From NCBI GenBank assembly GCA_041650515.1, contig JBAZLA010000001.1, positions 221,866-285,865 on the forward strand: a stretch of DNA of 64,000 nt, written 5' to 3'. Within the stretch, counting starts at the first letter, position 1, and each line of letters opens with the position of its first letter. Below are positions 25,507-43,211 of the stretch, one piece after another. The stretch comes from Patescibacteria group bacterium. Lineage in GTDB: Bacteria > Patescibacteriota > Patescibacteriia > JACRDY01. Both the position numbers and the translations under genes were made by a program. Below the pieces are notes generated by a model that was not told the DNA's origin, ran no database searches, and saw only the letters and a list, made by a program, of their open reading frames with translations.

Positions 25507-25531
25507 AATTAATTCATTTTAAATAATTAAT

Positions 25532-25810: not shown

Positions 25811-25887
25811 TCAAAATTGATTCAAGTTGGCTAGTCTAGACAAAGTAAGAATTAACGAATGTTATAACAGGGAAATACTTTAGTATA

Positions 25888-27414
25888 ATGAAATTTTTTG
25901 ATCAGACTAAAAAATATTCTGTCGGCTCGCTAGAGTTGGTTGTTTTTATTTGTGGCGCCGTGGTAATGGTTTTTGAATTGGCTGGCTCGCGGGTTTTAGC
26001 GCCATATCTGGGCACTTCAATTTATATTTGGACGTCGTTGATCGGCGTGATCTTGGGTAGTCTGAGCGTTGGTTATTGGCTAGGCGGAAAATTAGCTGAT
26101 AAGAAGTCGGAGATATGGTATTTGTCCCTAATCATTCTATTGGCCGCGGCCGCCATTGGTATAACCGTCATAATCAAAGATAAAGTCTTAATTTTTTTTC
26201 CGATCTCAACAACTAACTGGCAGTGGATTTCCTCTCTTATTTCTTTAATTTTATTTGCTCCTGCTAGCATTCTACTGGGCATGGTTTCGCCTTATGCTCT
26301 TAAGTTGCAGCTAAAAGATTTGGCCGTTTCGGGTCGGACGGCCGGCAGCCTTTATGCTATTTCTACTGTTGGCAGTATCGTCGGTACTTTTTTTGCTGGT
26401 TTCTATCTAATTCCGCATTTGGGTAATACCCAGATTCTTTTTTTACTAGCGGTTATTTTAATACTTACTTCGATTTTTGTCGCTCCCAAATCTTTAATCA
26501 AGACCAAGATTGCCTTGTTATTATTTTTAGTTTTTTTTTGGTGTTTAACCGGCTTAATTAGAAATATTACTTATCAGCGGTTGGGATTTTTAGACCTCGA
26601 CACACAGTATAATCGTATTTGGATATATCAAGGAGTTGACTTGGCAACCGGTCGGCCGGTTATTAATCTAGCCACCGATAAAATGTTTGCCCAGTCGGTT
26701 CGTTTTTTGGATAGTGACGAGTTGGTCGCAGAATATGCCAAATATTATCGTTTAGCTAAGCATTTTAATCCCAAGATTGAAAAATCCCTGATGCTTGGCG
26801 GTGGCGGGTATTCATATCCTCAAGATTATTTAAAAAATTTTCCATTAGCGACTATTGATGTGGTGGAGATTGATCCTAAAGTAACTGCACTAGCCAGAAC
26901 CTATTTTGGCTTGGAAGATAATCCGAGGCTAAAAATTTATCATGAAGATGGGCGGTTATTTTTAAATCAGGCTGAGGAAAAATATGATGTTATTTTTGGC
27001 GATGTTTTTAATTCCTTTGCGGCTGTTCCCTATCAGTTGGCTACTCAAGAAGCAATCAAAAGAGAGTATGAAATTTTAAATGATGGTGGGGTGGTGATTA
27101 TTAATATTGCTTCGGCTTTGGCGGGTGATCACGGCCGATTCTTACAGGCAGAATACATAACTTACCAAAGTGTTTTTCCTCAAGTGTATCTATTACCAGT
27201 ACAAGCGCCTCAAGACAGTCAGCAGTTGCAGAATATTATTTTAGTCGCGCTCAAATCAAATGATTTGCCATCTTGGCAAAGTACTGATCCAGAGTTAAAC
27301 GGTTACTTGCAGCACTTATGGGTTGAGCCGATTGCTGACAATTTGCCGGTTCTGGTGGATAATTACGCTCCAGTAGAATATTATCAGCGAAGCTTATTTA
27401 CCAATAAAGATTAA
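25888..27414 (+). CDS. Membrane-fused spermidine/spermine synthase family protein (polyamine aminopropyltransferase-like)
   Basis: 508 aa; about 7 N-terminal TM helices then an AdoMet-dependent aminopropyltransferase fold (MLGGGGYSYPQDYL…DVVEIDPKV…IYHEDGRLFL…YDVIFGD). Confidence 0.7.
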   Translation: MKFFDQTKKYSVGSLELVVFICGAVVMVFELAGSRVLAPYLGTSIYIWTSLIGVILGSLSVGYWLGGKLADKKSEIWYLSLIILLAAAAIGITVIIKDKVLIFFPISTTNWQWISSLISLILFAPASILLGMVSPYALKLQLKDLAVSGRTAGSLYAISTVGSIVGTFFAGFYLIPHLGNTQILFLLAVILILTSIFVAPKSLIKTKIALLLFLVFFWCLTGLIRNITYQRLGFLDLDTQYNRIWIYQGVDLATGRPVINLATDKMFAQSVRFLDSDELVAEYAKYYRLAKHFNPKIEKSLMLGGGGYSYPQDYLKNFPLATIDVVEIDPKVTALARTYFGLEDNPRLKIYHEDGRLFLNQAEEKYDVIFGDVFNSFAAVPYQLATQEAIKREYEILNDGGVVIINIASALAGDHGRFLQAEYITYQSVFPQVYLLPVQAPQDSQQLQNIILVALKSNDLPSWQSTDPELNGYLQHLWVEPIADNLPVLVDNYAPVEYYQRSLFTNKD

Positions 27415-27428
27415 CTTAAACAAAAAGT

Positions 27429-28268
27429 ATGCTGACGAAAAAGAATAAGACTATAGGTATTGTTATGCTGCTGCTAGCTATTCTGGTTGGTTGTTGGTGG
27501 TTACTGAATAAATCAAGTTTTAGTTTAGATGGCGGTAGCCAACGCCTTGAGCGGCCGATCCTAGTTGCTTCTGGTCATCCAGAATGGTCGCCGATTATGT
27601 GGCAGAGGGGTGATGAAATAATTGGTGTTGGCCCAGAGTTGGTAACTAAAATTTTTGATCAACTTGGTATTGATGTCAGTTCTGAGTATGCTGGTACCTG
27701 GGACGTGGTGCAAAAAAAAGCCAAGAGCGGCGAGATTGATGTTTTAGTAGCGGCTTACAAAACTAGTGAACGAGAAACCTACATGGATTATTCTGACGCT
27801 TACACTGTTGATCCGGTAGCGCTGTTTGTTAAAAAGGGCCAGAGTTTTACTTATAATAATTGGGATGATCTAGTTGGTAGGAATGGTGTGGCCACCATTG
27901 GTGATAGCTATGGTCAGCAATTTGATGATTTTCTTAAAACTAGTCTAACAGTTGAGCGGGTGGTAACTGCTCAAGAAGCATTTGAGAAAGTACTGGCTGG
28001 CCAAGCGGATTATTTCGTTTATGCTCTCTATTCTGGACAAAAGGCGATTGCCGATAATAATTATAGTGAACAAATTGAGATATTACCAAAATATGTTGCT
28101 CAGGAAAATTTTTATATCACGATTTCTAAAAAATCACCTTATAATAAATATCTGCCGCAGGTTAATGAATTGATTAAGCAATATCAAAAAGACGGGACAA
28201 TTATAAAGTTAATTAAGAAATATCAAGATCAGATTCTTTCTGGTTCAATTGATCTTGGCAATAATTAA
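27429..28268 (+). CDS. Substrate-binding protein (SBP family 3-like; amino-acid/polar-solute binding), orphan
   Basis: 279 aa; N-terminal TM/signal then a periplasmic-binding-protein type 2 fold pattern; no permease or ATPase adjacent. Confidence 0.55.
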   Translation: MLTKKNKTIGIVMLLLAILVGCWWLLNKSSFSLDGGSQRLERPILVASGHPEWSPIMWQRGDEIIGVGPELVTKIFDQLGIDVSSEYAGTWDVVQKKAKSGEIDVLVAAYKTSERETYMDYSDAYTVDPVALFVKKGQSFTYNNWDDLVGRNGVATIGDSYGQQFDDFLKTSLTVERVVTAQEAFEKVLAGQADYFVYALYSGQKAIADNNYSEQIEILPKYVAQENFYITISKKSPYNKYLPQVNELIKQYQKDGTIIKLIKKYQDQILSGSIDLGNN

Positions 28269-28278
28269 TTATTTTTTT

Positions 28279-28758
28279 ATGACCAAACAAAAAATTGGTT
28301 TGTTATTTGTTGCCATCTTAGTTTGTTTCGTCGCCGCGGCGATCGGATCGATTTTTACCACGCCAGCGATTCCAGTCTGGTACGCCAGTTTGATCAAACC
28401 TAGTTTTAGTCCGCCTAATTGGCTATTCGGTCCAGTCTGGTCGACTCTGTATCTATTGATGGGTATTGCACTATATTTGGTTTGGCGATTGGGTTGGGAT
28501 CAGAAAAAAGTTCGTTTGGCAGTGATTGTCTTTTTAGTTCATCTGGTTATTAATGCCCTGTGGAGTGTTTTATTTTTTGGTTTACATAGCCCGCTGCTGG
28601 GCTTAATTGGGATTTCGATTTTGTGGTTAATGATTATTTGGTTGATTTGGCGGTTTTGGTCGTTGCAACGGACGGCTGCCTATCTTCTTATTCCTTATTT
28701 ATTTTGGGTCTCTTTTGCCTCGGTGCTTAATTTTAGTATTTGGTGGCTGAATTCCTAA
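28279..28758 (+). CDS. tspO: TspO/MBR (tryptophan-rich sensory protein) family
   Basis: Start moved to MTKQKIGLLF (28279). 5 TM; FGPVWSTLYLLMGIALYLVWR…LIPYLFWVSFASVLNFSIWWLN matches the TspO signature. Confidence 0.85.
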   Translation: MTKQKIGLLFVAILVCFVAAAIGSIFTTPAIPVWYASLIKPSFSPPNWLFGPVWSTLYLLMGIALYLVWRLGWDQKKVRLAVIVFLVHLVINALWSVLFFGLHSPLLGLIGISILWLMIIWLIWRFWSLQRTAAYLLIPYLFWVSFASVLNFSIWWLNS

Positions 28759-28822
28759 AATTTTAAAATAGCTCGATCTGTAGTAGAATAAGAGCAGATT
28801 TAATTAATCTCTAAAATAGTTT

Positions 28823-29140
28823 ATGAATTTGTTTTATCTCTATATTTCTTGTATCGCTGTGTTGGATTTAGGTGGAATGTTGTCGGGTAAAATGTGGAAT
28901 ATTACCCGACAGCCGGTCTATCTGGTAGTAACTTGTTTAGCTTTTACGGTGGCTGGTTTTTTCTTCGCTTTATCATTGCGCTACGAAGGTATGGCGATTA
29001 CTAACATTTTTTGGATTGCTGTCTCTACTGTTTTAACCACCATTGCTGGGTACTTTGTTTTTAAAGAGCAGATTAGTTCGGTTCAGTTTATTGGTGTTTT
29101 AATAATAATTATTGGTGTTGCTTTGATTAACTGGCGCTAA
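28823..29140 (+). CDS. SMR/DMT-superfamily small membrane transporter (EmrE/ArnE-like)
   Basis: 105 aa, 3-4 TM helices; layout typical of small multidrug-resistance-type proteins. Confidence 0.6.
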   Translation: MNLFYLYISCIAVLDLGGMLSGKMWNITRQPVYLVVTCLAFTVAGFFFALSLRYEGMAITNIFWIAVSTVLTTIAGYFVFKEQISSVQFIGVLIIIIGVALINWR

Positions 29141-29145
29141 TAATT

Positions 29146-29472
29146 ATGAAAGATTTGTCTATCCAGCAGCTGACTAATCTAATAATGGCTCAGGCTAAGG
29201 TCAAGGGTTTTGGTACTAAGCCAATAGAGGTTGATGTGGCTGAGAAGATCGTTTTAGTCCATTCCGAAATAAGCGAGGCCTTCGAGGCTTATCGGCATAA
29301 GAAAATCAGAGGAGTTGATGCTTTTGAAGGTGAATTGTGCTCGGCTATTTTGCGGTTGTTGCATCTCTGTGGTGTTTTTGACATTAATGTTGAGCAGATG
29401 ATTCTAAAAAAAGTTAAGAGAAACAAAAGCCGTCAATGGCGCTGGCGGCAGATGAACGAGAAACATTCATAG
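29146..29472 (+). CDS. MazG-like nucleotide pyrophosphohydrolase domain protein
   Basis: 108 aa; LVHSEISEAFEAYRHK carries the MazG EExxE-type metal-binding motif. Confidence 0.6.
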   Translation: MKDLSIQQLTNLIMAQAKVKGFGTKPIEVDVAEKIVLVHSEISEAFEAYRHKKIRGVDAFEGELCSAILRLLHLCGVFDINVEQMILKKVKRNKSRQWRWRQMNEKHS

Positions 29473-29585
29473 CTGGTATTAAGCCGCTCATTGGGCGGTT
29501 TTATTGATCCATTGATTTAAGTCTAAATTTAGTGTAAAATAGCACTAATTAGTTAACTCAAACAAATATTAATAAATTTTATTCT

Positions 29586-31124
29586 ATGACTAATAAATTT
29601 ACCTCGACCGTTAGTACTACTTTTGCTGAATATCTGCTTTTGCCGCGGTTAACTACCAAACAGCATTCACCCGATAAAATCTCCTTGGCTACGCCGCTAG
29701 CTAGATACCGGCTAAAAGAAAAATCAAAGTTGTTTTTAAACGTTCCTTTTACCTCAGCGGTGATGCAAGCGGTTTCGGGACCAGATTTAGCGATTGCGTT
29801 AGCCCGCGAAGGCGGTTTGAGTTTTATTTATTGTTCACAGCCGATCGCCGAAGAGACTGCTATGGTTCTGCGAGTTAAGGATTATAAGGCGGGCTTTGTT
29901 ACCTCAAAGGCCAATCTTAAGCCGAGTAATACTTTAGCCGATGCGCTTAGGTTAACTGAAGAAACTGGCTATTCGACCATCGCGATTACCAAAAATGGCC
30001 AGCCTGATTCCGAGTTGTTGGGTATTTTGACGGATCAAGATTATTGGCTAGACTATGATTCACTTAATATTCCCTTGAGCAAATTAATGACGCCTTTTAC
30101 TAAATTGACTTATGGTTTGGCCGGCATTGCCTTGGATCAGGCCAATAAGATTCTGCGTGATTCTAAAAAATCTTGTATTCCGATTATTAATAACAAAAAA
30201 GAGCGCAAGTTAAAATTCTTAGTTTTTAAAAAAGATCGTGAGCAGCATTTGGAGCACTCTTTAGAGCTAATTGATGATCAAAAACGCTTATTAGTTGGGG
30301 CTGGTATTAATACCCGCGATTATTCTGAACGGGTACCCGAGTTAGTTAGGTCGGGTGCTGATGTTTTGGTAATTGATACTTCTGATGGCTATAATGAGTA
30401 TGTTAAAGATACAGTTACTTGGGTTAAAAAACACTACCCACAGATTCCGATTGGCGCCGGCAACGTGGTTGATGGGGCTGGTTTTAAATATTTGGCTAAT
30501 GCTGGTGCAGATTTTGTCAAAGTTGGTATCGGCGGCGGCTCAATCTGCATCACCCAAGAGGTTAAGGGTATCGGCCGCGGTCAGGTAACTGCTCTTTACG
30601 AGGTAGCCCAGGCCCGGGCTGAGTATTTGAAAAATAAAAAAGTCTATATCCCAATTTGTTCTGATGGCGGTTTGGTCCAAGACTCACACATCTTAATCGC
30701 TCTATCCCTGGGCGCTGATTTTGTAATGATGGGTCGTTATTTTGCCCGCTGTGCTGAGAGCCCGACCGAAGAGAAAATTTTGGGTGGTATGGGTCTGGTT
30801 AAGCCTTATTGGGGTGAGGGGTCAGACCGGGCGCGTAATTGGCAACGCTATCACAATAGTGAAGAAAACAATAATTTACCTTTTGAAGAAGGCGTCGATG
30901 GCTGGGTGCCCTTTGCGGGCAATCTATCAGATATAGTTCAAAAATCGGTTAAGATTACTAAATCGACTATGAGTAATTTAGGTTGTTTAAATATTGGTGA
31001 ATTGCATGAGAAGGTAATTCTAGAACGTCGTTCCTCCGCTTCCATCCATGAAGGCAAACCCCATGATGTCCAACTCCATGCCGATAATCTGGGTAGCTAC
31101 AAAAAACTTTATTGGGGTAAATAA
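29586..31124 (+). CDS. IMP dehydrogenase/GMP reductase family protein
   Basis: 512 aa; TIM-barrel catalytic loop [27 protein letters not shown] with catalytic Cys; phosphate-binding CSDGG…MMG; inserted subdomain between. Confidence 0.7.
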
Positions 31125-31130
31125 TTTTTT

Positions 31131-31739
31131 ATGTCTAGTAATCACCAACCCGGTTGCGGCCATTGCCCAGGCGGATTTGGTTTAGCCAGTCCTTTAGTTG
31201 AAGAGGAAAGGTTTTGGGTTGTTTGTGATCGTAATCCGCTTACCGAAGGACATATTCTAGTAATTCCACGTGAGCATATTTCTTGTGTTGGCAATTTAGT
31301 TGATGATGATTTTTTGCAACTTAAAAATTGGTATCAAAAAATTAGTCAGTTTATTTCAAATAATTATGGTCCGGTGGCGGTGTTTGAGCATGGCATCGCT
31401 GGTCAGACTGTGCCACATTGTCATGTCCATTTTTTGCCATTTAACGGCAATGTTGCTGATATTATTAGCCAAGCTGATAAATTAAAAGAAGTTAGTTCGC
31501 TAGACGAGTTACGTCGGGAGTTTGTAAACAAAGGTGAATATCTTTTTTTGGAAGTTGGCGGTAAACAGTATTTGGTTGATACCATTATTGGTTACCCACG
31601 ATTTTTTCGGGAATTATTCGCGGCCGCTTTAGGCGCACCAGAACGGGCTAATTGGCGAGTGGCGCGTCAAGATCCTGATATAAACAGTAAGATGGATAAC
31701 GAGATTAAGACTTTAGAAAATAAATGGAATGAAATTTAA
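31131..31739 (+). CDS. HIT (histidine triad) family hydrolase
   Basis: 202 aa; HILVIPREHIS and the triad HCHVHFLPF. Confidence 0.75.
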   Translation: MSSNHQPGCGHCPGGFGLASPLVEEERFWVVCDRNPLTEGHILVIPREHISCVGNLVDDDFLQLKNWYQKISQFISNNYGPVAVFEHGIAGQTVPHCHVHFLPFNGNVADIISQADKLKEVSSLDELRREFVNKGEYLFLEVGGKQYLVDTIIGYPRFFRELFAAALGAPERANWRVARQDPDINSKMDNEIKTLENKWNEI

Positions 31740-32058
31740 TCCACCCAAAAATTCTGATCGTTTTGTCTGGACTGCTCACGCCAAAGATAAGATGCGCTAT
31801 TACCAGTTGTCGGTTAGCCGCGTTTTACGCGTTTTTAATTATCCTAAACGGATTGAGGAAGGAATCGCTCCAAAGACGACGGCGGTGATGCAGCCAGCTA
31901 CTTATAAGCATACTTCGGAGATTTGGTTGATGTACCAGCTGGATGATAAAAAAAGAGTTAAAATAATCACGGCTTGGCGGTATCCAGCCAAAAGTCCGGT
32001 TGGTAAACAGATCCCGATTCCGGAGGAAATCAAAAAAGAATTAAAAATCTTAAATTGA
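31729..32058 (+). CDS. Hypothetical small protein (possibly DUF4258-like)
   Basis: 109 aa; WTAHAKDKMRYYQLSVSRVL resembles the HAxxRMxxRxI motif of DUF4258; weak. Confidence 0.4.
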   Translation: MKFNPPKNSDRFVWTAHAKDKMRYYQLSVSRVLRVFNYPKRIEEGIAPKTTAVMQPATYKHTSEIWLMYQLDDKKRVKIITAWRYPAKSPVGKQIPIPEEIKKELKILN

Positions 32059-32642
32059 TAATCAATTTTATGTTGGCAATCATCGCAACTAATATTTACC
32101 TGTTTATTCTGGCCGTGGTTTTAGCGATTTTAGAGATTCAGATTGAAGGTTCACATGGTTGGGCTAAAAATTTACCTACTTGGCGACCATCATCAGCAAA
32201 ATGGTATGTCCGGTGGTATCAAAAAATAATGGGCGGTAAAGAATGTACTGGCTATCATTTGGCTCTTTTTGGTTTTATATTTTTATTCTTTCACTCGCCC
32301 TATTTTTTTGGCGCACCGTTAACTTTAGAAAGTTGGCTGGAAACCTTGTCGCTTTATTTTATGTTTATGGTGGTTTGGGATTTTTTGTGGTTTGTCTTCA
32401 ACCCCGACTATCCAATCAAAAAATTTAAAAAAGAACATATCTGGTGGCACCGAAGATGGTGGTGGCTAGCGCCGGTGGAGTATTATTTTGGTTTTCTTAT
32501 TTCTTTTCTGGTCTTACTGCCGATCGTCAATTTAGATTTATTCTATTGGTGGTTGACTAATTTTGGTTTATTTTTTGTTGAGTCTTTAGTAGTGATTATC
32601 TTTACCCTGTTTATCATTAAAATTGATGACTGGCGTAAATAA
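32055..32642 (+). CDS. Hypothetical multi-TM membrane protein (Trp-rich)
   Basis: 195 aa; 4-5 TM; overlaps the upstream stop by 4 nt. Confidence 0.5.
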   Translation: MIINFMLAIIATNIYLFILAVVLAILEIQIEGSHGWAKNLPTWRPSSAKWYVRWYQKIMGGKECTGYHLALFGFIFLFFHSPYFFGAPLTLESWLETLSLYFMFMVVWDFLWFVFNPDYPIKKFKKEHIWWHRRWWWLAPVEYYFGFLISFLVLLPIVNLDLFYWWLTNFGLFFVESLVVIIFTLFIIKIDDWRK

Positions 32643-32644
32643 AT

Positions 32645-33439
32645 ATGGATAGCCTTTTCATTTGGAAATTGATTTTGGCTTTTTTAGTTGGTGGCGCCGG
32701 CATCGCTCTGACGACCGTTGCCGCTGAGCGATTTGGCAGTAAAGTGGGTGGTTTTATTGGGGGGTTGCCATCAACCTCTTTTCTCTCATTTTTGTTTATC
32801 GGTTTAGCCCAAGGGCCGTTAGCGGCCGCCGAAGCAACGACGGTTTTTCCTCTAATTCAAGCCATTGATGTCTTTTTTTTAGTGATCTTAGGCTGGTTGC
32901 TAAATAAAGGTCTAAAAACCGCCCTGGCCAGCTCATTTTTTGTTTGGTTAGTTTTTGCCATCTTGACTGTGCTCATGCAGCCGCATAATTTTTTCTTGCT
33001 TATTTTTTTGGGTCTAGCGATTTTTGTTGTTGCCATTTTTATTTTTAATAAAAAATTTGGTTATTTGACAGTCGGTGGCGAAAAAATTATCTATTCACCA
33101 CAACAAATCTTGGGCCGAGCGGTTTTTGGCGGTACGATTATTTTTATGGCGGTGCTTTTAAGTAAAATTGGCGGGCCGGTTTTTGGTGGTATCTTCTCCG
33201 CTTTTCCAGCGATGTTTACTTCGACTATGATCATTAGTTACCGCGCCAAAGGAATAAACTTTGCTCGGGCTTTAGTAAAGCCCTTAACCACCACGGCTAC
33301 GGTTACTTGTATTATCTATGGTATGGGTGTGCGTTATTTTTATCCCTCGCTGGGTTTAGCCCTGGGAACGATAGCTGCTTATTCTATCGCCGCCGCTAGC
33401 GCTTGGTTAACTTATAAATTTTTGTTAAACAAAATTTAG
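32645..33439 (+). CDS. Hypothetical multi-TM membrane protein
   Basis: 264 aa; about 8 TM helices. Confidence 0.5.
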   Translation: MDSLFIWKLILAFLVGGAGIALTTVAAERFGSKVGGFIGGLPSTSFLSFLFIGLAQGPLAAAEATTVFPLIQAIDVFFLVILGWLLNKGLKTALASSFFVWLVFAILTVLMQPHNFFLLIFLGLAIFVVAIFIFNKKFGYLTVGGEKIIYSPQQILGRAVFGGTIIFMAVLLSKIGGPVFGGIFSAFPAMFTSTMIISYRAKGINFARALVKPLTTTATVTCIIYGMGVRYFYPSLGLALGTIAAYSIAAASAWLTYKFLLNKI

Positions 33440-33440: not shown

Positions 33441-34202
33441 ATGAATACCAATAAAATAATTAAAGAGTGGCAGACTGAGTTTAAAAGAATGGGTGATCCG
33501 GCGCGCGCGGTTAAGGAAAAAAGTTATGTTCGCAGTCCGTTTAAATTTTATGGCGTGGGCATGGCTGGTCGGGAGAAGATGGCTAAAAAGTTTTTTACAG
33601 ACCACCGAGATTGGAGTATTAAAGATTTATGGCAACTAGTTTGGCCGCTCTGGAATTCCGGCTGGCATGAGTTGCGCGGTTTAGCTTTGGATTTATTGGC
33701 TTTATATAATAAGAAGTTAGCTTACGCGGATTTGCCCTACTTGGAAAAGTTGCTGCGGACGTCAGTTAATTGGGACCAGGTGGATGAAATCTCGGCGCAT
33801 CTGGTGGGATCGGTTTTAGCTCGCGATGAAAGAGTTTATGCTGATCTTAAACGTTGGAGCACGGACAGAAATTTTTGGCTGCGTCGGGCCGCGATGCTTA
33901 GTCAGTTAATTTTATTTCGTCAAAATCTTGGCGATCGTCAATTATTTTATGGTTTTGCCACCAAGATGATGGATGAGTCTTGGCAAAATTTTGATTCCTG
34001 GGCTAAAAATCACCCGGAGAAAATGGGCCGTTGGTTTATCCGCAAGGCGATTGGCTGGGTGCTGCGAGAAATGTCCAAAAAATGGCCGGGGGAAGTTTTC
34101 CAATTTTTACGGAAAAATAAGACTAAACTATCACCGCTGAGTTTCAAAGAGGGCAGCCGTAAGTTGCCGGTTGAGTACAAGGAGAAGCTGGAGATTAGTT
34201 AG
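33441..34202 (+). CDS. DNA alkylation repair enzyme (AlkD-like HEAT-repeat glycosylase family)
   Basis: 253 aa; MNTNKIIKEWQTEFKRMGDPARAVKEKSYVRSPFKFYGVGMAGREKMAKKFF is characteristic of this family. Confidence 0.75.
   Translation: MNTNKIIKEWQTEFKRMGDPARAVKEKSYVRSPFKFYGVGMAGREKMAKKFFTDHRDWSIKDLWQLVWPLWNSGWHELRGLALDLLALYNKKLAYADLPYLEKLLRTSVNWDQVDEISAHLVGSVLARDERVYADLKRWSTDRNFWLRRAAMLSQLILFRQNLGDRQLFYGFATKMMDESWQNFDSWAKNHPEKMGRWFIRKAIGWVLREMSKKWPGEVFQFLRKNKTKLSPLSFKEGSRKLPVEYKEKLEIS
34146..34169. repeat. 24-bp direct repeat AAAGAGGGCAGCCGTAAGTTGCCG, copy 1, inside the 3' end of the AlkD-like gene
   Basis: Identical 24-mer recurs at 35720-35743 on the far side of the beta-helix gene. Confidence 0.85.
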
Positions 34203-35592
34203 TTTTATTTATTCTTACTTTATCGCAAAACTTCTTTTTTTCTGCAACATTAAGACAACTTCCATCGCAGTTTTTTTGGCAAGTATTTGAAGTATTATAA
34301 CAAGACGGTTCGATCTGATCTCTGTTCCTCAGACATCGATAGCCAGCGCACTTGTCGTTGCTAATTGAATAATCATTTTTTTGACTTATAAAACCGTCGT
34401 TATTGTGCCAAGTGAAATAATATTTTAACAAGCAGGAAAAATTATCGCACGATGATAGTTCGATCCCGCAATCACTAGTTTCCGCGATGTTATCTTTCTG
34501 CTCGGAAAAAATTGACCCGTTGTTTATACCGCAATAAATATCGTACAAACCATGATAAGGGGAACAAAAATCTTTTTGATGAGATGTGCAGGCGGTATTG
34601 TTAACTAAAGTGATATCCTTTACTCCATTAAGTACAATATTATTTGAATGATCGGTCTGCCCAAACTCATTAATGTATCCTCTTGAATCAATAATGTTAT
34701 TTTTTATAACAGCGTTAGATACTAATTCTGTTGGACGTGACCAATCTCCAACGGTAATGCCATAATTACTTTTGGCGATTTCGTTATTTATAATGTCAAC
34801 GTTTTTTGAATTATAGATACTTATTCCTTGATAAAAATTTGATATTCTGCAGTTTCTAACAACTACATTTTCTCTAGCAGGATGCCCAACATAATTGCCA
34901 ATATAGAAACCTAAACCGTTGTAGCTTGGTTTTATTTCCACCATTTTATGGCCCTGGCAATCAACAATCACATTGTTTTGACGGATGCCAATACCCTCGC
35001 CAGAAATACTTAAATCTTCAGTGAGTAGATATGTTCCCGGCTCTTTGATATCTAGGGATTCGTTTCGCGAAGATATTTCAAAAAACGGTGTACTGCACTT
35101 TTTTTGGCTGTCTACGCAGGAACCGCTGCCGGTTGTGCACCAGTAACAGCCAGATCTCCCGCACGCATTAATGTTTGATTTTTTTTCGCAAGAGGTTGGT
35201 ACTAGTTGATTAATCATAACATAGCTAAGTTGACCCTGGCTTTCGAGTTTTTTAAATGTACTTTCATAATCTAACGAGCCAGATGATGTCTTTTCCTTAT
35301 TAGGAAGAGCTGCCTTGGCTATGCCAATGTTGCTACTTTTGCCCGCTTCAAGAACTGGCTGGTTGTCGGCATTAGGAAGAGCTGCCTTGGCTATGCCAAT
35401 GTTGCTATCCCCATCCACTTCAGAGATTGGTTGACTATTTTTTATTTTATCGTTTTTATAGATAATAATTCCCAAGATCGTCGTTGCAATTACTATTGTT
35501 AAGACAATCAACCCAGTGATGGCTTTTATTTTATTGGACTTCGGGACTCGCAATATTGGTGTTTGGTTTAGTGGCATCATTGATTCATCCAT
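34195..35592 (-). CDS. Membrane-anchored right-handed parallel beta-helix repeat protein (pectate-lyase/NosD-like fold)
   Basis: 465 aa; N-terminal TM; repeated beta-helix rungs (VVVRNCRISNFYQGISIYNSKNVDIINNEIAKSNYGITVG…NNIIDSRGY); internal 37-bp DNA duplication (35299-35335 and 35371-35407) encodes NIGIAKAALPN twice. Confidence 0.65.
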   Translation of the reverse strand: MDESMMPLNQTPILRVPKSNKIKAITGLIVLTIVIATTILGIIIYKNDKIKNSQPISEVDGDSNIGIAKAALPNADNQPVLEAGKSSNIGIAKAALPNKEKTSSGSLDYESTFKKLESQGQLSYVMINQLVPTSCEKKSNINACGRSGCYWCTTGSGSCVDSQKKCSTPFFEISSRNESLDIKEPGTYLLTEDLSISGEGIGIRQNNVIVDCQGHKMVEIKPSYNGLGFYIGNYVGHPARENVVVRNCRISNFYQGISIYNSKNVDIINNEIAKSNYGITVGDWSRPTELVSNAVIKNNIIDSRGYINEFGQTDHSNNIVLNGVKDITLVNNTACTSHQKDFCSPYHGLYDIYCGINNGSIFSEQKDNIAETSDCGIELSSCDNFSCLLKYYFTWHNNDGFISQKNDYSISNDKCAGYRCLRNRDQIEPSCYNTSNTCQKNCDGSCLNVAEKKKFCDKVRINKTN

Positions 35593-35719
35593 ACTTTTTA
35601 AGTTAATCGTTAAATACCTAAATTAAACCCTTATTAAGTAGCTTTCCCTTTAATAGTATCAGACCCGGCCCTAAAAAGAAAAGAATAGGGTTGATTATAT
35701 CATCAGCGGTTTAAACTCT

Positions 35720-35743
35720 AAAGAGGGCAGCCGTAAGTTGCCG
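35720..35743. repeat. 24-bp direct repeat AAAGAGGGCAGCCGTAAGTTGCCG, copy 2, intergenic
   Basis: Exact copy of 34146-34169. Confidence 0.85.
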
Positions 35744-35875
35744 CTTAGCTATCAACGGCGATTGGGGATTAAGTAGTTAAATTTTGGCTTATTTAAGCTA
35801 AAAAAGAGTTACATAAATAAACTGTTGATGATTATTCATTTTTTTAATCTTTTCTGTTATAATAAAAGCAAGTCT

Positions 35876-36742
35876 ATGCAAAAAGTACGCAAAGTTATTA
35901 TCCCCGCCGCTGGTTTGGGCACCCGTTTATTACCGGCCACTAAAGCGCAGCCTAAAGAAATGCTGCCAATTGTTGATAAGCCGATTATTCAGTATGTAGT
36001 AGAAGAGGCGGTGGCCGCGGGGATTGAAGATGTGATTATTGTGACCGGTAGTAATAAACGGGCGATTGAGGACCATTTCGATTATAATTACGAGCTACAA
36101 AACCAACTAAAAAAACAGGGCAAACACCGCGAGCGTCAGGAAATTAAGAAGATTGCTGATTTAGCCAATTTTATTTATATCCGTCAAAAGGGTCCTTATG
36201 GTAATGGGACGCCAGTGTTAAATTGTGCCAATTTAATTGGCGATGAGCCTTTTGCGGTTCTATGGGCGGATGATTTGATAGTCGGCCAAAAACCAAGACT
36301 GAAGCAGTTAATTGAAGTCTATGAAAGGTACGGTGACCCAGTCTTAACCGCGATTAAAACCGATACCGCCGGTACCAAAAAATATGGCATGATTGAAGGT
36401 TTAAAAATAGAAGAGAATATTTTGCAGGTAAAAAACATTATTGAAAAGCCAGGACCAGCGGCGGCGCCTTCTCTCTGGGCAGCGGTTGGAGGCTATATTC
36501 TAACGCCGGATATTTTTCCAATTTTAAGAAAGACCAAATTAGGCCGAGGCGGTGAGCTTTGGTTAGTGGATGCAATTTTTGCCCTGGCCAAACGACGTCC
36601 GATTTATGCTTGTTTAGTGGATGGCCAGTATTATGATGCTGGTTCGCCTTTAGGATTACTTAAAACCAACGTCGATTTTGCCTTGATGGATAAAAATATT
36701 AGCGAAGATTTCAAAAAATACCTAAAACAAATTATTAAATAG
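35876..36742 (+). CDS. galU: UTP--glucose-1-phosphate uridylyltransferase
   Basis: Start moved to MQKVRKVIIPAAGLGTRLLPATKAQPKEMLPIVDKP (ATG 35876); canonical GalU N-terminal motif. Confidence 0.9.
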   Translation: MQKVRKVIIPAAGLGTRLLPATKAQPKEMLPIVDKPIIQYVVEEAVAAGIEDVIIVTGSNKRAIEDHFDYNYELQNQLKKQGKHRERQEIKKIADLANFIYIRQKGPYGNGTPVLNCANLIGDEPFAVLWADDLIVGQKPRLKQLIEVYERYGDPVLTAIKTDTAGTKKYGMIEGLKIEENILQVKNIIEKPGPAAAPSLWAAVGGYILTPDIFPILRKTKLGRGGELWLVDAIFALAKRRPIYACLVDGQYYDAGSPLGLLKTNVDFALMDKNISEDFKKYLKQIIK

Positions 36743-38172: not shown

Positions 38173-38883
38173 ATGGTGGAAACTAAGATAATAAAAAGAT
38201 CGATCTGGCCCAGGCTGATTCTGGTGTTGTTGGTTGTTTTGGTAATTATTATTTTTAATTTTACCGTGGCTCGGGCTGGTTTTGATGGTTATACTTGTGA
38301 AAGTCAGTCGCAGCAGGCAACAATTTGTGTTGGTGGTTGCACCAGCGATTGTCTCAGTTGTTCTGAGACTTCGGATTGTTGTTTAGATGGTGGCAGCAGC
38401 TGTGATACTGGCAGTACCACTGATACTGGCAGTACCACTGATACTGGCAGTACCACTCCGCAAGCATTACCAAAGTGTCAGGCCGGTTGGTATTCTAAAC
38501 CAGTTGGTTTGTTCGCTGATGTTGATCCTAATTGTTACGCCTGTGGTGATTGTACTCTGTGTGATTTTTTGGCGGTGGCTAATGGTTTAGCTAAAATTAT
38601 TTTTTCGGTTTTTGGTGGTGTTGCTTTGGTGATGTTTCTATGGGGTGGTTTAAGCTTTATTTTGGCCGGGGGAGCGGCTGAGAAGATTACTAATGCCAAG
38701 AAGATTCTAATTAGTGCGGTTGTGGGTATTGTGATAATTTTAGCCGCTTGGGAAATAGTTCATTTGGTAATCATCGTTTTTTCTACTTCGCCAGAGCAAT
38801 TACATAAGGGTAATTTTGTCACTGAGTTATTTTCGAATAAAGAAGGTAAGGGTTTACCTTGGAACAATCCGACCTGTAAATAA
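38173..38883 (+). CDS. TrbC/VirB2-like (T4SS pilin-like) family protein, paralog 1, with Cys-rich and GSTTDT-repeat insert
   Basis: 236 aa; N-terminal TM; C-terminal block FGGVALVMFLWGGLSFILAGGAAEKITNAKKILISAVVGIVIILAAWEIV shared with the ten downstream genes. Confidence 0.7.
   Translation: MVETKIIKRSIWPRLILVLLVVLVIIIFNFTVARAGFDGYTCESQSQQATICVGGCTSDCLSCSETSDCCLDGGSSCDTGSTTDTGSTTDTGSTTPQALPKCQAGWYSKPVGLFADVDPNCYACGDCTLCDFLAVANGLAKIIFSVFGGVALVMFLWGGLSFILAGGAAEKITNAKKILISAVVGIVIILAAWEIVHLVIIVFSTSPEQLHKGNFVTELFSNKEGKGLPWNNPTCK
38404..38457. repeat. 18-bp in-frame tandem repeat x3 (GATACTGGCAGTACCACT; encodes GSTTDT)
   Basis: Three perfect copies head to tail inside paralog 1. Confidence 0.9.
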
Positions 38884-38886: not shown

Positions 38887-39315
38887 ATGAATAAAGTCCA
38901 AAAAATCATTATTTTTAGTTTGTTAGTCTTTATTGGTCTAACTTTTCTGGTTAATCTAGCCGTGGCTTTTGAGCCATTAAAAAACCCCTTGAATATTGAG
39001 ATTAAGAGCCCCGCCCAGGTCTATGAGTTGATCGGTCGGGTATCTCAGGCGATTTTGGGTTTAGTTGGTTCAGCGGTTTTTGTGATGTTCATTTACGGTG
39101 GAATTACCTGGTTGCTATCTGGCGGTGCCGAAGAAAAGATCAAAAAGGCTCGAGGAACATTAGTTTGGTCGCTCTTTGGCTTATTAATTATATTCACTAG
39201 CTACGCCTTATTAAGTTTTACCATCCGTTATATTACTATTGCGACTGGCGTCAGCACCGAAGCTTTTAGTGACAGCGGTAGCGATCAACCAGGTCCGCCG
39301 GCTGGTGGGCAGTAA
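38887..39315 (+). CDS. TrbC/VirB2-like pilin-like family protein, paralog 2
   Basis: 142 aa; signal/TM; C-terminal VGSAVFVMFIYGGITWLLSGGAEEKIKKARGTLVWSLFGLLIIFTSYALLSF. Confidence 0.75.
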   Translation: MNKVQKIIIFSLLVFIGLTFLVNLAVAFEPLKNPLNIEIKSPAQVYELIGRVSQAILGLVGSAVFVMFIYGGITWLLSGGAEEKIKKARGTLVWSLFGLLIIFTSYALLSFTIRYITIATGVSTEAFSDSGSDQPGPPAGGQ

Positions 39316-39321
39316 TCTGTA

Positions 39322-39351
39322 TTGACAATTTGGGGTAAAAGATATTATAAT
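39322..39351 (+). promoter_or_regulatory. Sigma70-like promoter (TTGACA, 18-nt spacer, TATAAT) upstream of paralog 3
   Basis: Consensus hexamers at 39322-39327 and 39346-39351; followed by RBS AAAGGGGG. Confidence 0.45.
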
Positions 39352-39406
39352 ATAGAGGTATTAATTAGTTTATTAATTTAATCTCCACAAAGAAAGGGGG
39401 TGAAGT

Positions 39407-39766
39407 ATGAACAAAATTATTAAAGTATCGACCTTAGTTTTCCTTTTGGCCCTGTTAGTTGTCCCACATTTTGCTGGTGCCATCGACTTGGGCTTGGGTT
39501 ATGCCACGGCCACTGGTTTGACCAGTACGGATATTCGCGTAACCGTTTCTCGGATTATTAACGTCGCCCTAGGTCTTTTGGGTGTTATCGCAGTGGTGAT
39601 TATTTTAGTTGGCGGCTTCAAGTGGATGACGGCTGGTGGTAATGAAGAAAAAGTTACCGAAGCTAAAAAATTGATTGCGGCTGGTGTTATTGGTTTAGCA
39701 ATTATCTTAACTGCTTATGCCATCGCTGCCTTCGTGATCAACTCCTTGCTCAAGGCCGTACAATAG
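39407..39766 (+). CDS. TrbC/VirB2-like pilin-like family protein, paralog 3
   Basis: 119 aa; C-terminal LGVIAVVIILVGGFKWMTAGGNEEKVTEAKKLIAAGVIGLAIILTAYAIAAFV. Confidence 0.75.
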   Translation: MNKIIKVSTLVFLLALLVVPHFAGAIDLGLGYATATGLTSTDIRVTVSRIINVALGLLGVIAVVIILVGGFKWMTAGGNEEKVTEAKKLIAAGVIGLAIILTAYAIAAFVINSLLKAVQ

Positions 39767-39822
39767 TTAGTTTGAGTAATCATTGAAGTGTTTAATGCCT
39801 CAGCTGGGTAATTAAATTTTTG

Positions 39823-39937
39823 GGGGCCCAGCCCCTTTCTTACTCACGATGATCATAGTTTCGCCTAATAGGATAATTTGGCGCTAGCTGTAGGTAATAT
39901 TAACTACCCGTGGTTGAGAAAGGGGCGGGCCCCCCTA
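39823..39937. repeat. GC-rich ~30-bp imperfect inverted repeat with 55-bp spacer between pilin-like genes 3 and 4
   Basis: TTTTGGGGGCCCAGCCCCTTTCTTACTCACG … CGTGGTTGAGAAAGGGGCGGGCCCCCCTAAA; about 27 of 31 arm positions are complementary. Confidence 0.7.
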
Positions 39938-39948
39938 AATAAGCATTT

Positions 39949-40353
39949 ATGAATCGGAAAAATATTAATAAAGTGTTGTTTCTTGCGTTGGTTGGTATTT
40001 TGGTTTTGCCAGTGTTATGTCTAGCAGCGACTCAACCCGGTACGGCTGATTTTGGCTTAACATCAACAGCGAGCCAGGCTTATGGCACTAAGCCAGCGCA
40101 GACTGATCCGACGGTGATTACTGGCACCATCATTGGCGTGATTCTTTCTTCATTGGGTATTATTTTTATGATCCAGGTTATTTTGGCTGGCATCAAATGG
40201 CTGACCGCTCAAGGTAATGAAGAGAAAATCACTAGCGCTCGCAAGAGCTTGATTCATTCTATCATTGGTTTGGTTATTGTTCTGTCGGCCTATACTCTAG
40301 TCTACTTTGTGATGGGGCAGATACTTTTTCCAGCTATTGGTATCAAGAAATAA
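39949..40353 (+). CDS. TrbC/VirB2-like pilin-like family protein, paralog 4
   Basis: 134 aa; C-terminal LGIIFMIQVILAGIKWLTAQGNEEKITSARKSLIHSIIGLVIVLSAYTLVYFV. Confidence 0.75.
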   Translation: MNRKNINKVLFLALVGILVLPVLCLAATQPGTADFGLTSTASQAYGTKPAQTDPTVITGTIIGVILSSLGIIFMIQVILAGIKWLTAQGNEEKITSARKSLIHSIIGLVIVLSAYTLVYFVMGQILFPAIGIKK

Positions 40354-40366
40354 TTTTGTATAATAC

Positions 40367-40777
40367 ATGAAAGTTTTTTCGAACAAAATACTGATAATCA
40401 TAGTCACCTGGTTTCTTATAATTTTTGCTGTTCCAGCCGTGGCTACTGAGGTGCCGCCAACCTTATTAAATGCCCCCGAACAAGCCGGTGGTCTAGCTGT
40501 TAAGGCCGGTTATCCCGAGAAACCGCGGGCACCAGAAGAAGTGGTCGGCCGGCTGATTTCTTATGCGATGGGCGCTTTGGGCGTTGTTTTCTTTGTCCTG
40601 ATGGTTTATGGTGGTTGGCTGTGGCTAACAGCTAGCGGCAATGAAGAACAAATTACTAAAGCCAAGAAACTAATTATCGAAGCAGTTATTGGTCTAGCGA
40701 TTATTTTTGCCGCTTATGCCATCACCTACTTTGTGGTTAGTAAAGCTCTAAGTAGCATTACGCCCGAGACAGAGTAG
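40367..40777 (+). CDS. TrbC/VirB2-like pilin-like family protein, paralog 5
   Basis: 136 aa; C-terminal LGVVFFVLMVYGGWLWLTASGNEEQITKAKKLIIEAVIGLAIIFAAYAITYFV. Confidence 0.75.
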   Translation: MKVFSNKILIIIVTWFLIIFAVPAVATEVPPTLLNAPEQAGGLAVKAGYPEKPRAPEEVVGRLISYAMGALGVVFFVLMVYGGWLWLTASGNEEQITKAKKLIIEAVIGLAIIFAAYAITYFVVSKALSSITPETE

Positions 40778-40784
40778 TAATATT

Positions 40785-41243
40785 GTGATATTGATTATGG
40801 CTAATATTTTTAAAAAAATCTATTTTCTAGCTCTTGTATTTTTATTACTCCTACCCTTGGTGGGCGTTTTGGCCGGTGATAAGGATGAGTGGAAACCCGG
40901 TAAGCTAACCAATATTACCAGTGAGCTGGAGCGAACTGGTGGTGAACAAGGTATGGGTGTGGATGTTGAAAATTTGAGCAAAGACGAGGCGCTGTATAAA
41001 ATTATTGGTAAGTGGGTTAATTGGGTAACTTCTTTTTTGGGTGTAGTGTTTACTTTATTAATAATCTATGGCGGCTGGTTGTGGTTTTCGGCTAATGGTA
41101 ATGAAGAAAAAATTACCCAAGCTAAAAAAATTATTATTAATTCAGTGATTGCCCTGGCCATAGTGCTGTTTGCTTGGATAATTACATCGACCGTATTGTA
41201 TTATACAGCTAGTGCTTCAGTGACTTCCGTAAGTGGACAATAA
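40785..41243 (+). CDS. TrbC/VirB2-like pilin-like family protein, paralog 6
   Basis: 152 aa; C-terminal LGVVFTLLIIYGGWLWFSANGNEEKITQAKKIIINSVIALAIVLFAWIIT. Confidence 0.75.
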   Translation: MILIMANIFKKIYFLALVFLLLLPLVGVLAGDKDEWKPGKLTNITSELERTGGEQGMGVDVENLSKDEALYKIIGKWVNWVTSFLGVVFTLLIIYGGWLWFSANGNEEKITQAKKIIINSVIALAIVLFAWIITSTVLYYTASASVTSVSGQ

Positions 41244-41248
41244 TTTAT

Positions 41249-41734
41249 ATGATATATGTAACACAATATGGTTTTTTGAAAATTATCTCAATACTATTTT
41301 TAGTATTGTTTTTGTTTAATAGTTTGTTAACGCCGGCTCTAGCTGTTGAGAACGCTTTGTTGGATATTGAGAATATGGCAAAAACTGGTGCCCAAGTGGC
41401 GGGGGAAGGTGGTTATTATACTGGCGATGACCCGGCGGTTGGTGCTAAAGTTTGGGTAGAGAGTACTAGTTATATTATTAGAATAATTATAACCTTTGTT
41501 GGTGTTTTATTTTTTGTTTTGATGATCTATGGCGGGGTTTTATGGATGACGGCTGGTGGCAATGAAGAACAGGTTAAAAAAGCCAGAAGTATATTAATCC
41601 AAGCATTGGTTGGTATAGTGATTGTTTTTGCTGCCTATGCCGTTACTGTCCTAGTATTTTATGTCCTTGGCAGTGAAACCTCTGGTGTTTATAATGTTGG
41701 TGAGATGCCGACAGATACACCTGAAGTTGATTAG
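41249..41734 (+). CDS. TrbC/VirB2-like pilin-like family protein, paralog 7
   Basis: 161 aa; C-terminal VGVLFFVLMIYGGVLWMTAGGNEEQVKKARSILIQALVGIVIVFAAYAVTVLVF. Confidence 0.75.
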   Translation: MIYVTQYGFLKIISILFLVLFLFNSLLTPALAVENALLDIENMAKTGAQVAGEGGYYTGDDPAVGAKVWVESTSYIIRIIITFVGVLFFVLMIYGGVLWMTAGGNEEQVKKARSILIQALVGIVIVFAAYAVTVLVFYVLGSETSGVYNVGEMPTDTPEVD

Positions 41735-41800
41735 CGGTTGGGACCTAATATTCTGGTAAATTATTAGTTTAAAAATAGTAAGAGGGTTTTTAGCTAGTTT

Positions 41801-42244
41801 ATGTCTATAAAATACAGTTATAAAATTTGTCTTCTGACCTTGTTAGCTATGATGTTAATTTCGCCATTGATTGGCTGTCTAGCGGGGGAAGAGGTTGACC
41901 TTAATGCAACGGTAGTTGATAGTTTACGTAATTCCGCTGGTGTTAAGGGTGCTGGTTATAACACGGAGGCAACAGAGGAAGGAACGAATGGAAATATTAT
42001 AGTTATCTACCTTGGTAGAATAATCAAATACGCCTTGACTTTTTTGGGTGTAATTTTCTTTCTTTTTATGATTTATGGCGGTATCCGCTGGATGGTTGCT
42101 CAGGGTAATGAGGAACAGGTGACTGAGGCAAAAAAAATGATTAAAAGTAGTGTTATTGGTTTGGTTATTATTCTATCTGCCGGAATTGTCGCCTGGGTTG
42201 TTTTTGAATATTTATTTAAGGCGACCACTGGTCAATCCAGTTAA
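41801..42244 (+). CDS. TrbC/VirB2-like pilin-like family protein, paralog 8
   Basis: 147 aa; C-terminal LGVIFFLFMIYGGIRWMVAQGNEEQVTEAKKMIKSSVIGLVIILSAGIVAWVVF. Confidence 0.75.
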   Translation: MSIKYSYKICLLTLLAMMLISPLIGCLAGEEVDLNATVVDSLRNSAGVKGAGYNTEATEEGTNGNIIVIYLGRIIKYALTFLGVIFFLFMIYGGIRWMVAQGNEEQVTEAKKMIKSSVIGLVIILSAGIVAWVVFEYLFKATTGQSS

Positions 42245-42258
42245 GTTTATCTAAATTT

Positions 42259-42735
42259 GTGTTTATGTTGATCGAGACAAAAAAAATTAAATTTTTATTC
42301 TCATTTATTTTGTTGGTATTTTGTTTATTACCGTCATTATCTGTGATGGCTGTAGAGCAACCTCATCAGACTGCTACAGACTGGCATCGTGATTTTATAA
42401 CTGCTAGTGGTTTTGCTATACCCGGTACGACCGAGGGTGCTAATCTAGAAAGTGGAATCACCAATATTATCGCGCTTATTTTGTCAGTTGTTTTATCGAC
42501 CTTGGGCGCAATCTTTTTGATTCTAGTTCTTTATGCTGGTATTCTGTGGATGACCGCTGGTGGCAACCAAGAGCAGGTGACTAAGGCTAAGAAGCTGTTA
42601 ATTAATGCTACCATTGGTTTAACGATTGTTTTGTCGGCTTATGCTATTACCTATATTGTGATGGCCTGGCTGGGTAATGCCATTGGTTATGATACTGGCG
42701 ACGGCTTTACGGCTCCGCCAGCCGGCTCTCTATAA
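42259..42735 (+). CDS. TrbC/VirB2-like pilin-like family protein, paralog 9
   Basis: 158 aa; C-terminal LGAIFLILVLYAGILWMTAGGNQEQVTKAKKLLINATIGLTIVLSAYAITYIVM. Confidence 0.75.
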   Translation: MFMLIETKKIKFLFSFILLVFCLLPSLSVMAVEQPHQTATDWHRDFITASGFAIPGTTEGANLESGITNIIALILSVVLSTLGAIFLILVLYAGILWMTAGGNQEQVTKAKKLLINATIGLTIVLSAYAITYIVMAWLGNAIGYDTGDGFTAPPAGSL

Positions 42736-42765
42736 ATCAAGTTAACTCATTGTCTGATATAAAGT

Positions 42766-43194
42766 ATGTATAAACGAATCACTATTTTTATCCTGGGGTT
42801 GGTTTTATTATCTAATATGCTGGGCGTTGGATTGGCGGCTGCTGCTGATGGTGAAGACCCGACAATTATGGGCACGCTGGGCCCGATTGCCACCCAGGCG
42901 GGCTATAGCGAGGATACGCAAGAGATGAGTGTGTTTATCATTGTGGCTAATGTTTTGTCTATTCTTTTTACTACTCTGGGCGTCATCTTTATGCTTATTG
43001 TGCTCTATGCTGGTTTTCGCTGGATGACGGCTGGTGGTAATGAAGAAAAGGTTACCGAAGCTAAAAAACTACTGATTAACGCGACAATCGGCTTAGCCAT
43101 TGTTTTATTGGCTCTGAGTATTACCTATTTTGTTGGCGGCGCCCTAGGGCCAGCGATTGGCGAAGAGTATAATCCCGCTCAAGGTTTCTTTTAA
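42766..43194 (+). CDS. TrbC/VirB2-like pilin-like family protein, paralog 10
   Basis: 142 aa; C-terminal LGVIFMLIVLYAGFRWMTAGGNEEKVTEAKKLLINATIGLAIVLLALSITYFV. Confidence 0.75.
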   Translation: MYKRITIFILGLVLLSNMLGVGLAAAADGEDPTIMGTLGPIATQAGYSEDTQEMSVFIIVANVLSILFTTLGVIFMLIVLYAGFRWMTAGGNEEKVTEAKKLLINATIGLAIVLLALSITYFVGGALGPAIGEEYNPAQGFF

Positions 43195-43211
43195 ACTTAA
43201 ATATTTGCTTT

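Follow-up and report, generated by a model that had tools for sequence, protein, structure and literature searches.

An apparent one-gene integration at the 3' end of an AlkD-family gene in a Patescibacteria genome, with a perfect 24-bp repeat at its junctions and a displaced gene end beyond

The repeat pair and the two AlkD ends

The window considered here, a 64-kb stretch of DNA from a Patescibacteria bacterium, contains an AlkD-family gene for DNA alkylation repair and, farther along the same strand, a galU-like nucleotidyltransferase gene. Between the two lies a single gene on the opposite strand, whose product is probably a surface protein of the beta-helix type (Table 1). This intervening gene, called the cargo gene in what follows, is bracketed by an exact 24-bp direct repeat, AAAGAGGGCAGCCGTAAGTTGCCG, as the initial annotation had pointed out. 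The first copy constitutes codons 236-243 of the AlkD gene, and the second is found 128 nt upstream of the start of the cargo open reading frame (ORF). As argued below, the locus is probably an integration of the attachment-site (att) type at the 3' end of a gene, which would have furnished the AlkD gene with a surrogate tail.

The repeat is rare by any measure applied to it. No copy beyond the two was found in the window even when up to three mismatches were allowed (none is expected, judging from 100 shuffles), and the pair ranks fifth in length among the exact repeat pairs of the window, only five of which are of at least 24 nt. The sequence was also not found in three public DNA collections (metagenome, reference-genome, and viral), so it is not a common dispersed motif, in keeping with what the initial annotation had supposed. 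An artefact of assembly is unlikely to have given rise to the structure of the locus, because two other assemblies from the same population, an ENA k141 contig and a Logan contig, carry the identical sequence across 34100-35900.

The second copy of the repeat does not stand alone. Read in the frame of the first, it stays open to a TAG codon 33 nt past the repeat, the same offset as in the live gene: the live end reads ...SPLSF-KEGSRKLP-VEYKEKLEIS-TAG, and the sequence at the second copy reads ...ISGLNS-KEGSRKLP-LSYQRRLGIK-TAG. The right flanks of the two copies, compared in register (34170-34232 with 35744-35806), agree at 17 of 33 positions up to the stop and at 18 of the 30 beyond it, 35 of 63 in all. 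Agreement this good has an empirical P of ~1e-5 relative to random segment pairs drawn from the window, and it declines to the level of chance farther out. The homology therefore spans ~87 nt, with the tails ~55% identical outside the 24-nt core, a degree of similarity that is invisible to gapped local alignment and was detected by an in-register test with an empirical null. To the left of the two cores, identity is at the level of chance (4/18 and 11/45).

A profile of AlkD proteins gives the same answer. The profile, made from 119 homologs with the window's own protein excluded, was run against six-frame peptides of the window and of 14 loci, and the sequence at the second copy was its sole match outside a gene (profile positions 220-241 of 258; 10.6 bits, E 0.13). 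The end of that sequence is akin to genuine AlkD C-termini, such as LEYQKLLKV and DKYKKKLGIK (each followed by a stop). Because of the shared stop offset, the homology of the right flanks, the match to the profile, and the likeness of the tails, the second copy is the opening of a displaced, alternative AlkD 3' end, and the repeat is the perfectly matching core within a duplication that is longer and has otherwise diverged. The extent of this relic is secure over 35720-35776, and its extension to the left, over 35702-35719, is suggestive. A profile search of 12 other AlkD loci found no such displaced tail. It had been proposed that the 3' end of the AlkD gene was duplicated during the insertion, which is imprecise: with tails only ~55% identical outside the core, the live and relic ends represent two distinct versions of the gene end with a core of recent common origin, not one end that was copied.

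How unusual is a perfect core between such tails? For comparison, the corresponding 18 + 24 + 33 nt were taken from 12 other AlkD genes, giving 90 pairs in which the two genes come from different genomes. Conservation is highest in the core (a mean of 56% identity versus 44% for the flanks), but identity there reaches a maximum of 21/24, and for the 58 pairs whose flanks have diverged to the degree seen in the window pair (no more than 23/51 identical), the maximum is 18/24. The window pair has 24/24 in the core and 21/51 in the flanks. Given the same eight residues, the chance of encountering the same eight codons is 1.4e-4 under the codon usage of this genome, and uniform decay to the identity of the flanks would leave 24 identical bases with a probability of ~3e-6 (0.59^24). 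Furthermore, the first codon of the core is AAA (Lys) in both copies, and Arg occupies this position in 11 of the 12 other AlkD tails compared. A perfect core amid flanks so diverged would appear, from these comparisons, not to be a case of ordinary conservation. The combination therefore points to a crossover at the core rather than to slow divergence.

Table 1. Features of the locus between the AlkD-family and galU-like genes (coordinates within the 64-kb window)
Feature	Positions	Strand	Remarks
AlkD-family DNA alkylation repair gene	33441-34202	+	PF08713; 253 codons
Core copy 1, attL-like junction	34146-34169	+	Exact 24-mer; encodes KEGSRKLP
Surrogate AlkD end (putative)	34170-34232	+	33 nt to stop and ~30 nt beyond; homologous to displaced, presumptively native end
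Inserted segment (apparent)	34170-35719		1,550 bp (1,574 bp including one core); bounded by the two cores
Cargo gene, 465 aa	34195-35592	-	ORF; overlaps AlkD stop by 8 nt
In-frame tandem repeat in cargo linker	35299-35442	-	Two ~72-nt units; 37 nt identical, rest diverged
Promoter-like site facing cargo	35694-35722	-	Best in region; 10/12 with extended -10; consensus match only
Displaced AlkD 3' end (relic)	35702-35776	+	(ISGLNS)-KEGSRKLP-LSYQRRLGIK-TAG
Core copy 2, attR-like junction	35720-35743	+	Exact 24-mer; non-coding
Promoter-like element TGTTATAAT	35855-35863	+	12 nt upstream of galU start; native right flank
galU-like nucleotidyltransferase gene	35876-36742	+	PF00483, E 1.4e-27; ancestral downstream neighbor of AlkD

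The empty site in related genomes and the gene that occupies it

The initial annotation had taken the beta-helix gene to be inserted between AlkD and galU, with the repeat marking both junctions, and had suggested a search for genomes in which AlkD is followed directly by galU. Two such genomes were found. One (L003) is a 323-kb contig from a related Patescibacteria genome that shares a syntenic stretch of more than 10 kb with the window. Identities there are 67% for the ORF at 31729, 58% for AlkD, 80% for galU, and 60% for a solute-binding protein, after which come pilin-like genes. Here galU begins 40 nt past the AlkD stop. The other (L013) is a more distant Patescibacteria metagenome-assembled genome, with AlkD 47% identical and, directly after it, a galU 56% identical to that of the window. 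Because both relatives have AlkD and then galU with nothing in between, the 1,550-bp segment appears to be an insertion in the window rather than a loss elsewhere. The native right flank is also recognizable, as L003 has tgttataataaaa 11 nt before the galU ATG, in the place of the promoter-like TGTTATAAT of the window. Exact-protein look-ups, made to find strain variants or nearer relatives lacking the insert, retrieved the same population genome alone (identical over the stretch given above), and among 5.8 billion proteins the closest other AlkD sequences have identities of 60% and 58%.

These relatives bear on the possibility that the AlkD end, or a second copy of the gene, was duplicated in place long ago and then decayed, with the beta-helix gene arriving independently. 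That the two tails are homologous over ~87 nt is what such a history predicts. However, uniform decay could not be expected to spare the core (the ~3e-6 calculated above), the left flank drops to chance immediately outside it, and neither relative has a second AlkD tail, nor does any of the 12 loci. A local duplication of this sort is highly improbable.

The AlkD gene itself matches PF08713 over the full length of the profile (positions 2-213 of 213; E 5e-50, 170.5 bits against a cut-off of 21). Which side of the core is native? The 18 nt to the left of the core in the live gene match the L003 ortholog at 11 positions, and the left flank of the relic matches it at 6. Because of this closer match, and because the identity of AlkD to its L003 counterpart (58%) is typical of the neighboring genes (59-80%), the left flank of the live gene would seem to be native. 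By this reasoning, the body of AlkD up to 34169 would be native, and its last 11 codons (34170-34202, VEYKEKLEIS and the stop) would have come with the insert.

The main rival to a crossover at the core enters at this point. Perhaps a fragment of a donor chromosome from another Patescibacteria genome, carrying a foreign AlkD gene and a convergent beta-helix gene, replaced most of the resident AlkD gene by homology-facilitated illegitimate recombination, with homology at its left end, somewhere within AlkD or before it, and an illegitimate joint at its right end, just before the last ~20 codons of the resident gene. Identity over the 24 bp would in that case reflect conservation that two AlkD alleles had inherited. 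Such an event requires no recombinase, matching the absence of one, and it would account for a relic that reads as one contiguous and plausible AlkD C-terminus (ISGLNSKEGSRKLPLSYQRRLGIK and a stop), as the live end does also, and for a core that falls in the best-conserved part of AlkD tails. Against this stand the window pair itself, which lies beyond all 90 pairs compared, the unusual Lys codon in both copies, and the native appearance of the live gene in its left flank and in its identity as a whole. Moreover, no donor and no homolog of the cargo gene turned up in the databases searched. Replacement from a donor is therefore considered unlikely, though it deserves more attention than the other alternatives.

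What is the gene that was evidently inserted? The predicted protein of 465 aa (461 aa in public gene calls, which begin at the second in-frame ATG, at 35580, rather than at 35592) has a hydrophobic helix (a putative membrane anchor) at residues 25-43, a repeat linker, Cys-rich segments, a putative beta-helix core at about residues 180-320, and a C-terminal Cys-rich module, with 21 Cys in all. Its match to NosD (17.7 bits) lies below the cut-off of 23.6, and matches to TIGR parallel-beta-helix families are similarly sub-threshold. An exhaustive phmmer search of 1.8 billion representatives returned the protein itself and then partial matches at ~32% identity, of which those aligned to the beta-helix core carry PF13229/PF05048. 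The C-terminal Cys-rich module is common to proteins that include, in one case, dockerin and PKD domains. A single-sequence AlphaFold2 model shows stacked strands, but with a predicted local distance difference test score (pLDDT) of 43.6 it is too poor for use. A word-indexed protein search found only the gene itself, and locus searches of viral and metagenome sequences found no cargo homolog, donor, or free element. All considered, the product is best described as a probable membrane-anchored extracellular beta-helix protein.

The cargo gene stands out from its surroundings by its orientation, as the only minus-strand ORF of at least 120 aa between 19363 and 43661, a 24-kb run of plus-strand genes. 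Its base composition is not decisive as to foreign origin, and this line of evidence was dropped (a GC fraction of 0.370 versus 0.410 +/- 0.032, z = -1.25). Together with a promoter-like site, the gene makes up the entire content of the inserted segment, which has no other ORF of at least 60 aa, and on the opposite strand its last codons overlap the surrogate AlkD end. The promoter-like site has its -10 element (TG-TATAAT) within the insert and its -35 element (TTTAGA) astride the junction of the insert with the second core.

Within the linker of the cargo protein, a 37-bp exact pair (35299-35335 and 35371-35407, spaced by 72 nt) had been taken in the initial annotation as a further sign of repeat-driven change at the locus. 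It is unrelated to the 24-bp repeat and is the conserved half of an in-frame tandem repeat that encodes ~24 residues, with SNIGIAKAALPN occurring twice (the protein reads ...DSNIGIAKAALPNADNQPVLEAGKSSNIGIAKAALPNKEK...) and 15/35 identity in the other half. A Logan contig from SRR8542065 (L002) ends inside this repeat, at window position ~35327, as is typical of contig ends induced by repeats, and this might be a hint that the number of repeat units varies within the population.

How the segment may have been acquired

The preferred explanation, to which we give a probability of roughly 0.6, is that a reciprocal (Campbell-type) crossover with a circular DNA, at the 24-bp core, inserted the one-gene segment of 1.55 kb into the end of AlkD. 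According to this model, the incoming circle would have carried one surface-protein gene and the core that it shared with the chromosome, and adjoining the core it would have borne an AlkD end of its own (33 nt to the stop and ~30 nt beyond). A single reciprocal crossover within the core would have had two consequences. AlkD would now read through the core into the surrogate tail, remaining full-length at 253 codons, and the original tail, still joined to galU, would now be a non-coding relic, lying 1,574 bp farther downstream and opening with the second core. The site before insertion would have read ...CACCGCTGAGTTTC + core + CTTAGCTATCAACGGCG..., and the junction of the circle ...GCGGTTTAAACTCT + core + GTTGAGTACAAGGAG..., with an attP made up of 35660-35719, the core, and 34170-34260. 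The AlkD protein would have ended in ...KEGSRKLPLSYQRRLGIK and a stop, ~80 nt upstream of the TGTTATAAT of galU. Four parts of this scheme we infer: the circular intermediate, the placement of the crossover inside the core, the choice of which tail is native, and the enzyme. As to the last, a site-specific recombinase acting in trans is favored, because a 24/24 match between diverged tails is explained only if the mechanism requires identity at the core or brings it about. A one-off crossover of the RecA type at the same 24 bp may have served instead.

There are precedents for much of this anatomy. Phage 21-type prophages and e14 integrate within icd (PMC12803456). In E. coli K-12, e14 begins within icd, 165 nt short of the end of the gene, and a pseudogene of 165 nt, icdC, is found where the element stops. 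Measured in the same way as the locus under study, icd and icdC show left flanks at the level of chance (15/60), tails that agree in register at 153 of 165 positions with the same stop, and 38/60 identity past the stop. The two cases have in common an integration in the last part of a gene, a surrogate 3' end, and a displaced original end that is non-coding. They differ in that e14 is 15.2 kb in length and carries intE and xisE, whereas the insert here measures 1.55 kb and holds a single cargo gene, without a recombinase; that the e14 tail is 165 nt with 93% identity and a longest exact run of 29 nt, whereas here a perfect 24-nt core adjoins ~55% identity over 63 nt; and that here the target is an AlkD-family gene, in a Patescibacteria host. 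What sets the present locus apart is a one-gene unit without a recombinase, and its occurrence in a Patescibacteria genome.

Other known systems resemble the locus in part. In the islands found at the 3' ends of tRNA and tmRNA genes, direct repeats derived from the gene end flank the insert, and the gene is rebuilt at one junction, as is seen here with AlkD. Those islands, however, have RNA genes as their targets, the repeat usually spans the whole duplicated end at near identity, and an integrase gene normally adjoins one junction. Integron cassettes and Xer modules (the integrative mobile elements that exploit Xer recombination, or IMEX, and pdif modules) are small, often consisting of one gene and one short site, with the recombinase encoded elsewhere, and in this they are like the unit described here, very small and lacking its own recombinase. 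Integron cassettes differ in having attI/attC next to an integron integrase and a palindromic attC, and they are usually promoterless; Xer modules differ in having dif-like sites of 28 bp. The present locus has instead a protein-coding end as its target, an apparent promoter of its own, and a core with no significant dyad, and no integrase is annotated in the window. An integron cassette was rejected on the grounds that the target is the coding end of AlkD, that the annotation of the window includes no integrase, and that the promoter-like site faces the cargo gene. No notable inverted repeat was seen at the ends of the insert, although attC was not searched for with a dedicated model.

A more conventional insertion is harder to reconcile with the sequence. 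The initial annotation had offered, as alternatives, a long target-site duplication and a recombination-mediated cassette insertion. The latter fits what was found; the former does not. A transposition-type insertion, in which staggered cuts 24 bp apart were filled in, would explain why the copies are perfect, direct, and immediately flank the insert. But it leaves unexplained that the left end of the insert is AlkD-like, with the same stop and ~30 nt of homology beyond (the 35/63 given earlier), and 24 bp exceeds the usual target duplications of transposases. The insert also lacks terminal inverted repeats (10/20 at best, P 0.55) and contains neither a transposase gene nor one resembling Cas1, and on these grounds an insertion sequence, a miniature inverted-repeat transposable element, or another transposon was rejected. 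The likelihood of a target-site duplication seems slight. A diversity-generating retroelement was likewise rejected, as the mismatches in the right flanks are of all kinds and in both directions, not confined to adenine, and no reverse transcriptase family appears in the annotation of the window.

It might be supposed that a prophage or island encoding an integrase once entered at the AlkD 3' end, and that internal deletions later reduced this larger integrative element to a single cargo gene between its two att junctions. Decayed islands are common, the att-type anatomy would be the same as in a crossover with a small circle, and the missing integrase would be accounted for. But the cargo gene fills the insert from end to end, its stop overlapping the surrogate tail by 8 nt and the -35 of its promoter-like site overlapping the second core, and because of this there is no scar or spare sequence to represent the deleted part, nor are there pseudogene fragments. 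Such a remnant is rather improbable.

Insertion by a crossover with a small circle has its own difficulties, and several observations weigh against it. The insert holds no integrase, transposase, or second ORF, its single ORF having weak beta-helix matches, and no recombinase family is among the Pfam annotations precomputed for ~60 kb of the window, where only RuvB and RuvC appear. Dyad symmetry of the core, considered as the signature of a recombinase site, was rejected as not above chance (P 0.28). No circular form, second copy, closely related empty site, or homologous cassette was found in the collections searched, leaving a single instance. The relatives with an empty site are distant (AlkD 58% and 47% identical) and show the ancestral gene order, and the exact attB sequence before insertion was not recovered from them. 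The right-hand tails do not discriminate which is native, as the two agree with those of relatives at 12-18 and 7-17 positions of 33, respectively. To the left of the second core, the protein-level likeness to AlkD (ISGLNS) amounts to three residues only. A search for known RNA families at the junctions, finally, found none.

One may imagine a more general capacity, namely that the 1.55-kb unit is a self-contained mobile cassette without a recombinase, comprising a surface-protein gene, its own promoter, and an att site that mimics the end of AlkD. This notion is doubtful, and it is just as doubtful that another part of the genome, or a helper element, supplies a recombinase that moves such a cassette in trans. 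If it were so mobile, the unit would be an integrative cassette of a very small type, and Patescibacteria would possess a minimal means, like that of integron cassettes, to swap surface proteins, with the 3' end of a housekeeping gene as the docking site. If the event happened but once, it still left a textbook-style footprint.

Patescibacteria (also called the Candidate Phyla Radiation, CPR) combine tiny genomes with a life in attachment to host cells, a way of life to which variable surface proteins are thought to be relevant. To our knowledge, how they acquire the genes for such proteins is poorly documented. The locus offers a case, resolved to the base, of an orphan surface-protein gene added at the end of a housekeeping gene, with the target undamaged and with both the junctions and the original end readable. 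There is also a practical lesson for annotators: the short AlkD-like stretch that precedes galU should be treated as a relic rather than as a gene.

Other features of the surrounding sequence

The region upstream of AlkD differs from that of the relative L003. Between the RNase_H_2-like/SBP_bac_3 genes and AlkD (23609-33439 in the window, 1-5981 in L003), gene content is largely different, with spermine synthase, TspO, EamA, IMPDH, HIT, and DUF3147 in the window and NUDIX, dCache, DUF2769, VTT, and flavodoxin in L003. The neighborhood upstream of AlkD is therefore variable in general.

A second repeat associated with the end of a gene lies at 12861-13075, where a 99-bp tandem repeat (2.2 copies, 98% identical, with an 87-nt exact pair) starts inside the 3' end of tRNA-Leu(taa) (12794-12877). 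Each unit ends with the last 17 nt of the tRNA (GATTCCCTCCCTGGGCA) and contains hairpins like the long variable arm and the T arm. ARAGORN and Rfam identified only the first, real tRNA in this region, and the fold energy of a unit is no better than that of shuffled sequences. In appearance the units are degenerate tRNA copies in tandem rather than att scars, and the repeat was therefore rejected as a sign of integrase activity in this genome.

Three genes of the metallo-beta-lactamase fold are located within 6 kb (48009-49928, 50013-50783, and 53176-53952); one is an RNase J, and for the other two there are precomputed matches to PF23023 (Anti-Pycsar Apyc1-like). Closer to the insertion, an ORF at 38173-38883, predicted to be Cys-rich and membrane-anchored, contains a perfect 18-bp tandem repeat (38403-38457, 3.1 copies, encoding TDTGST). 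It precedes an array of about eleven small paralogs of PF18895 (T4SS_pilin) at 38887-43661, directly downstream of galU and the solute-binding protein gene, where L003 has three, and an exact repeat of 29 nt is shared within the array between 39623 and 43021.

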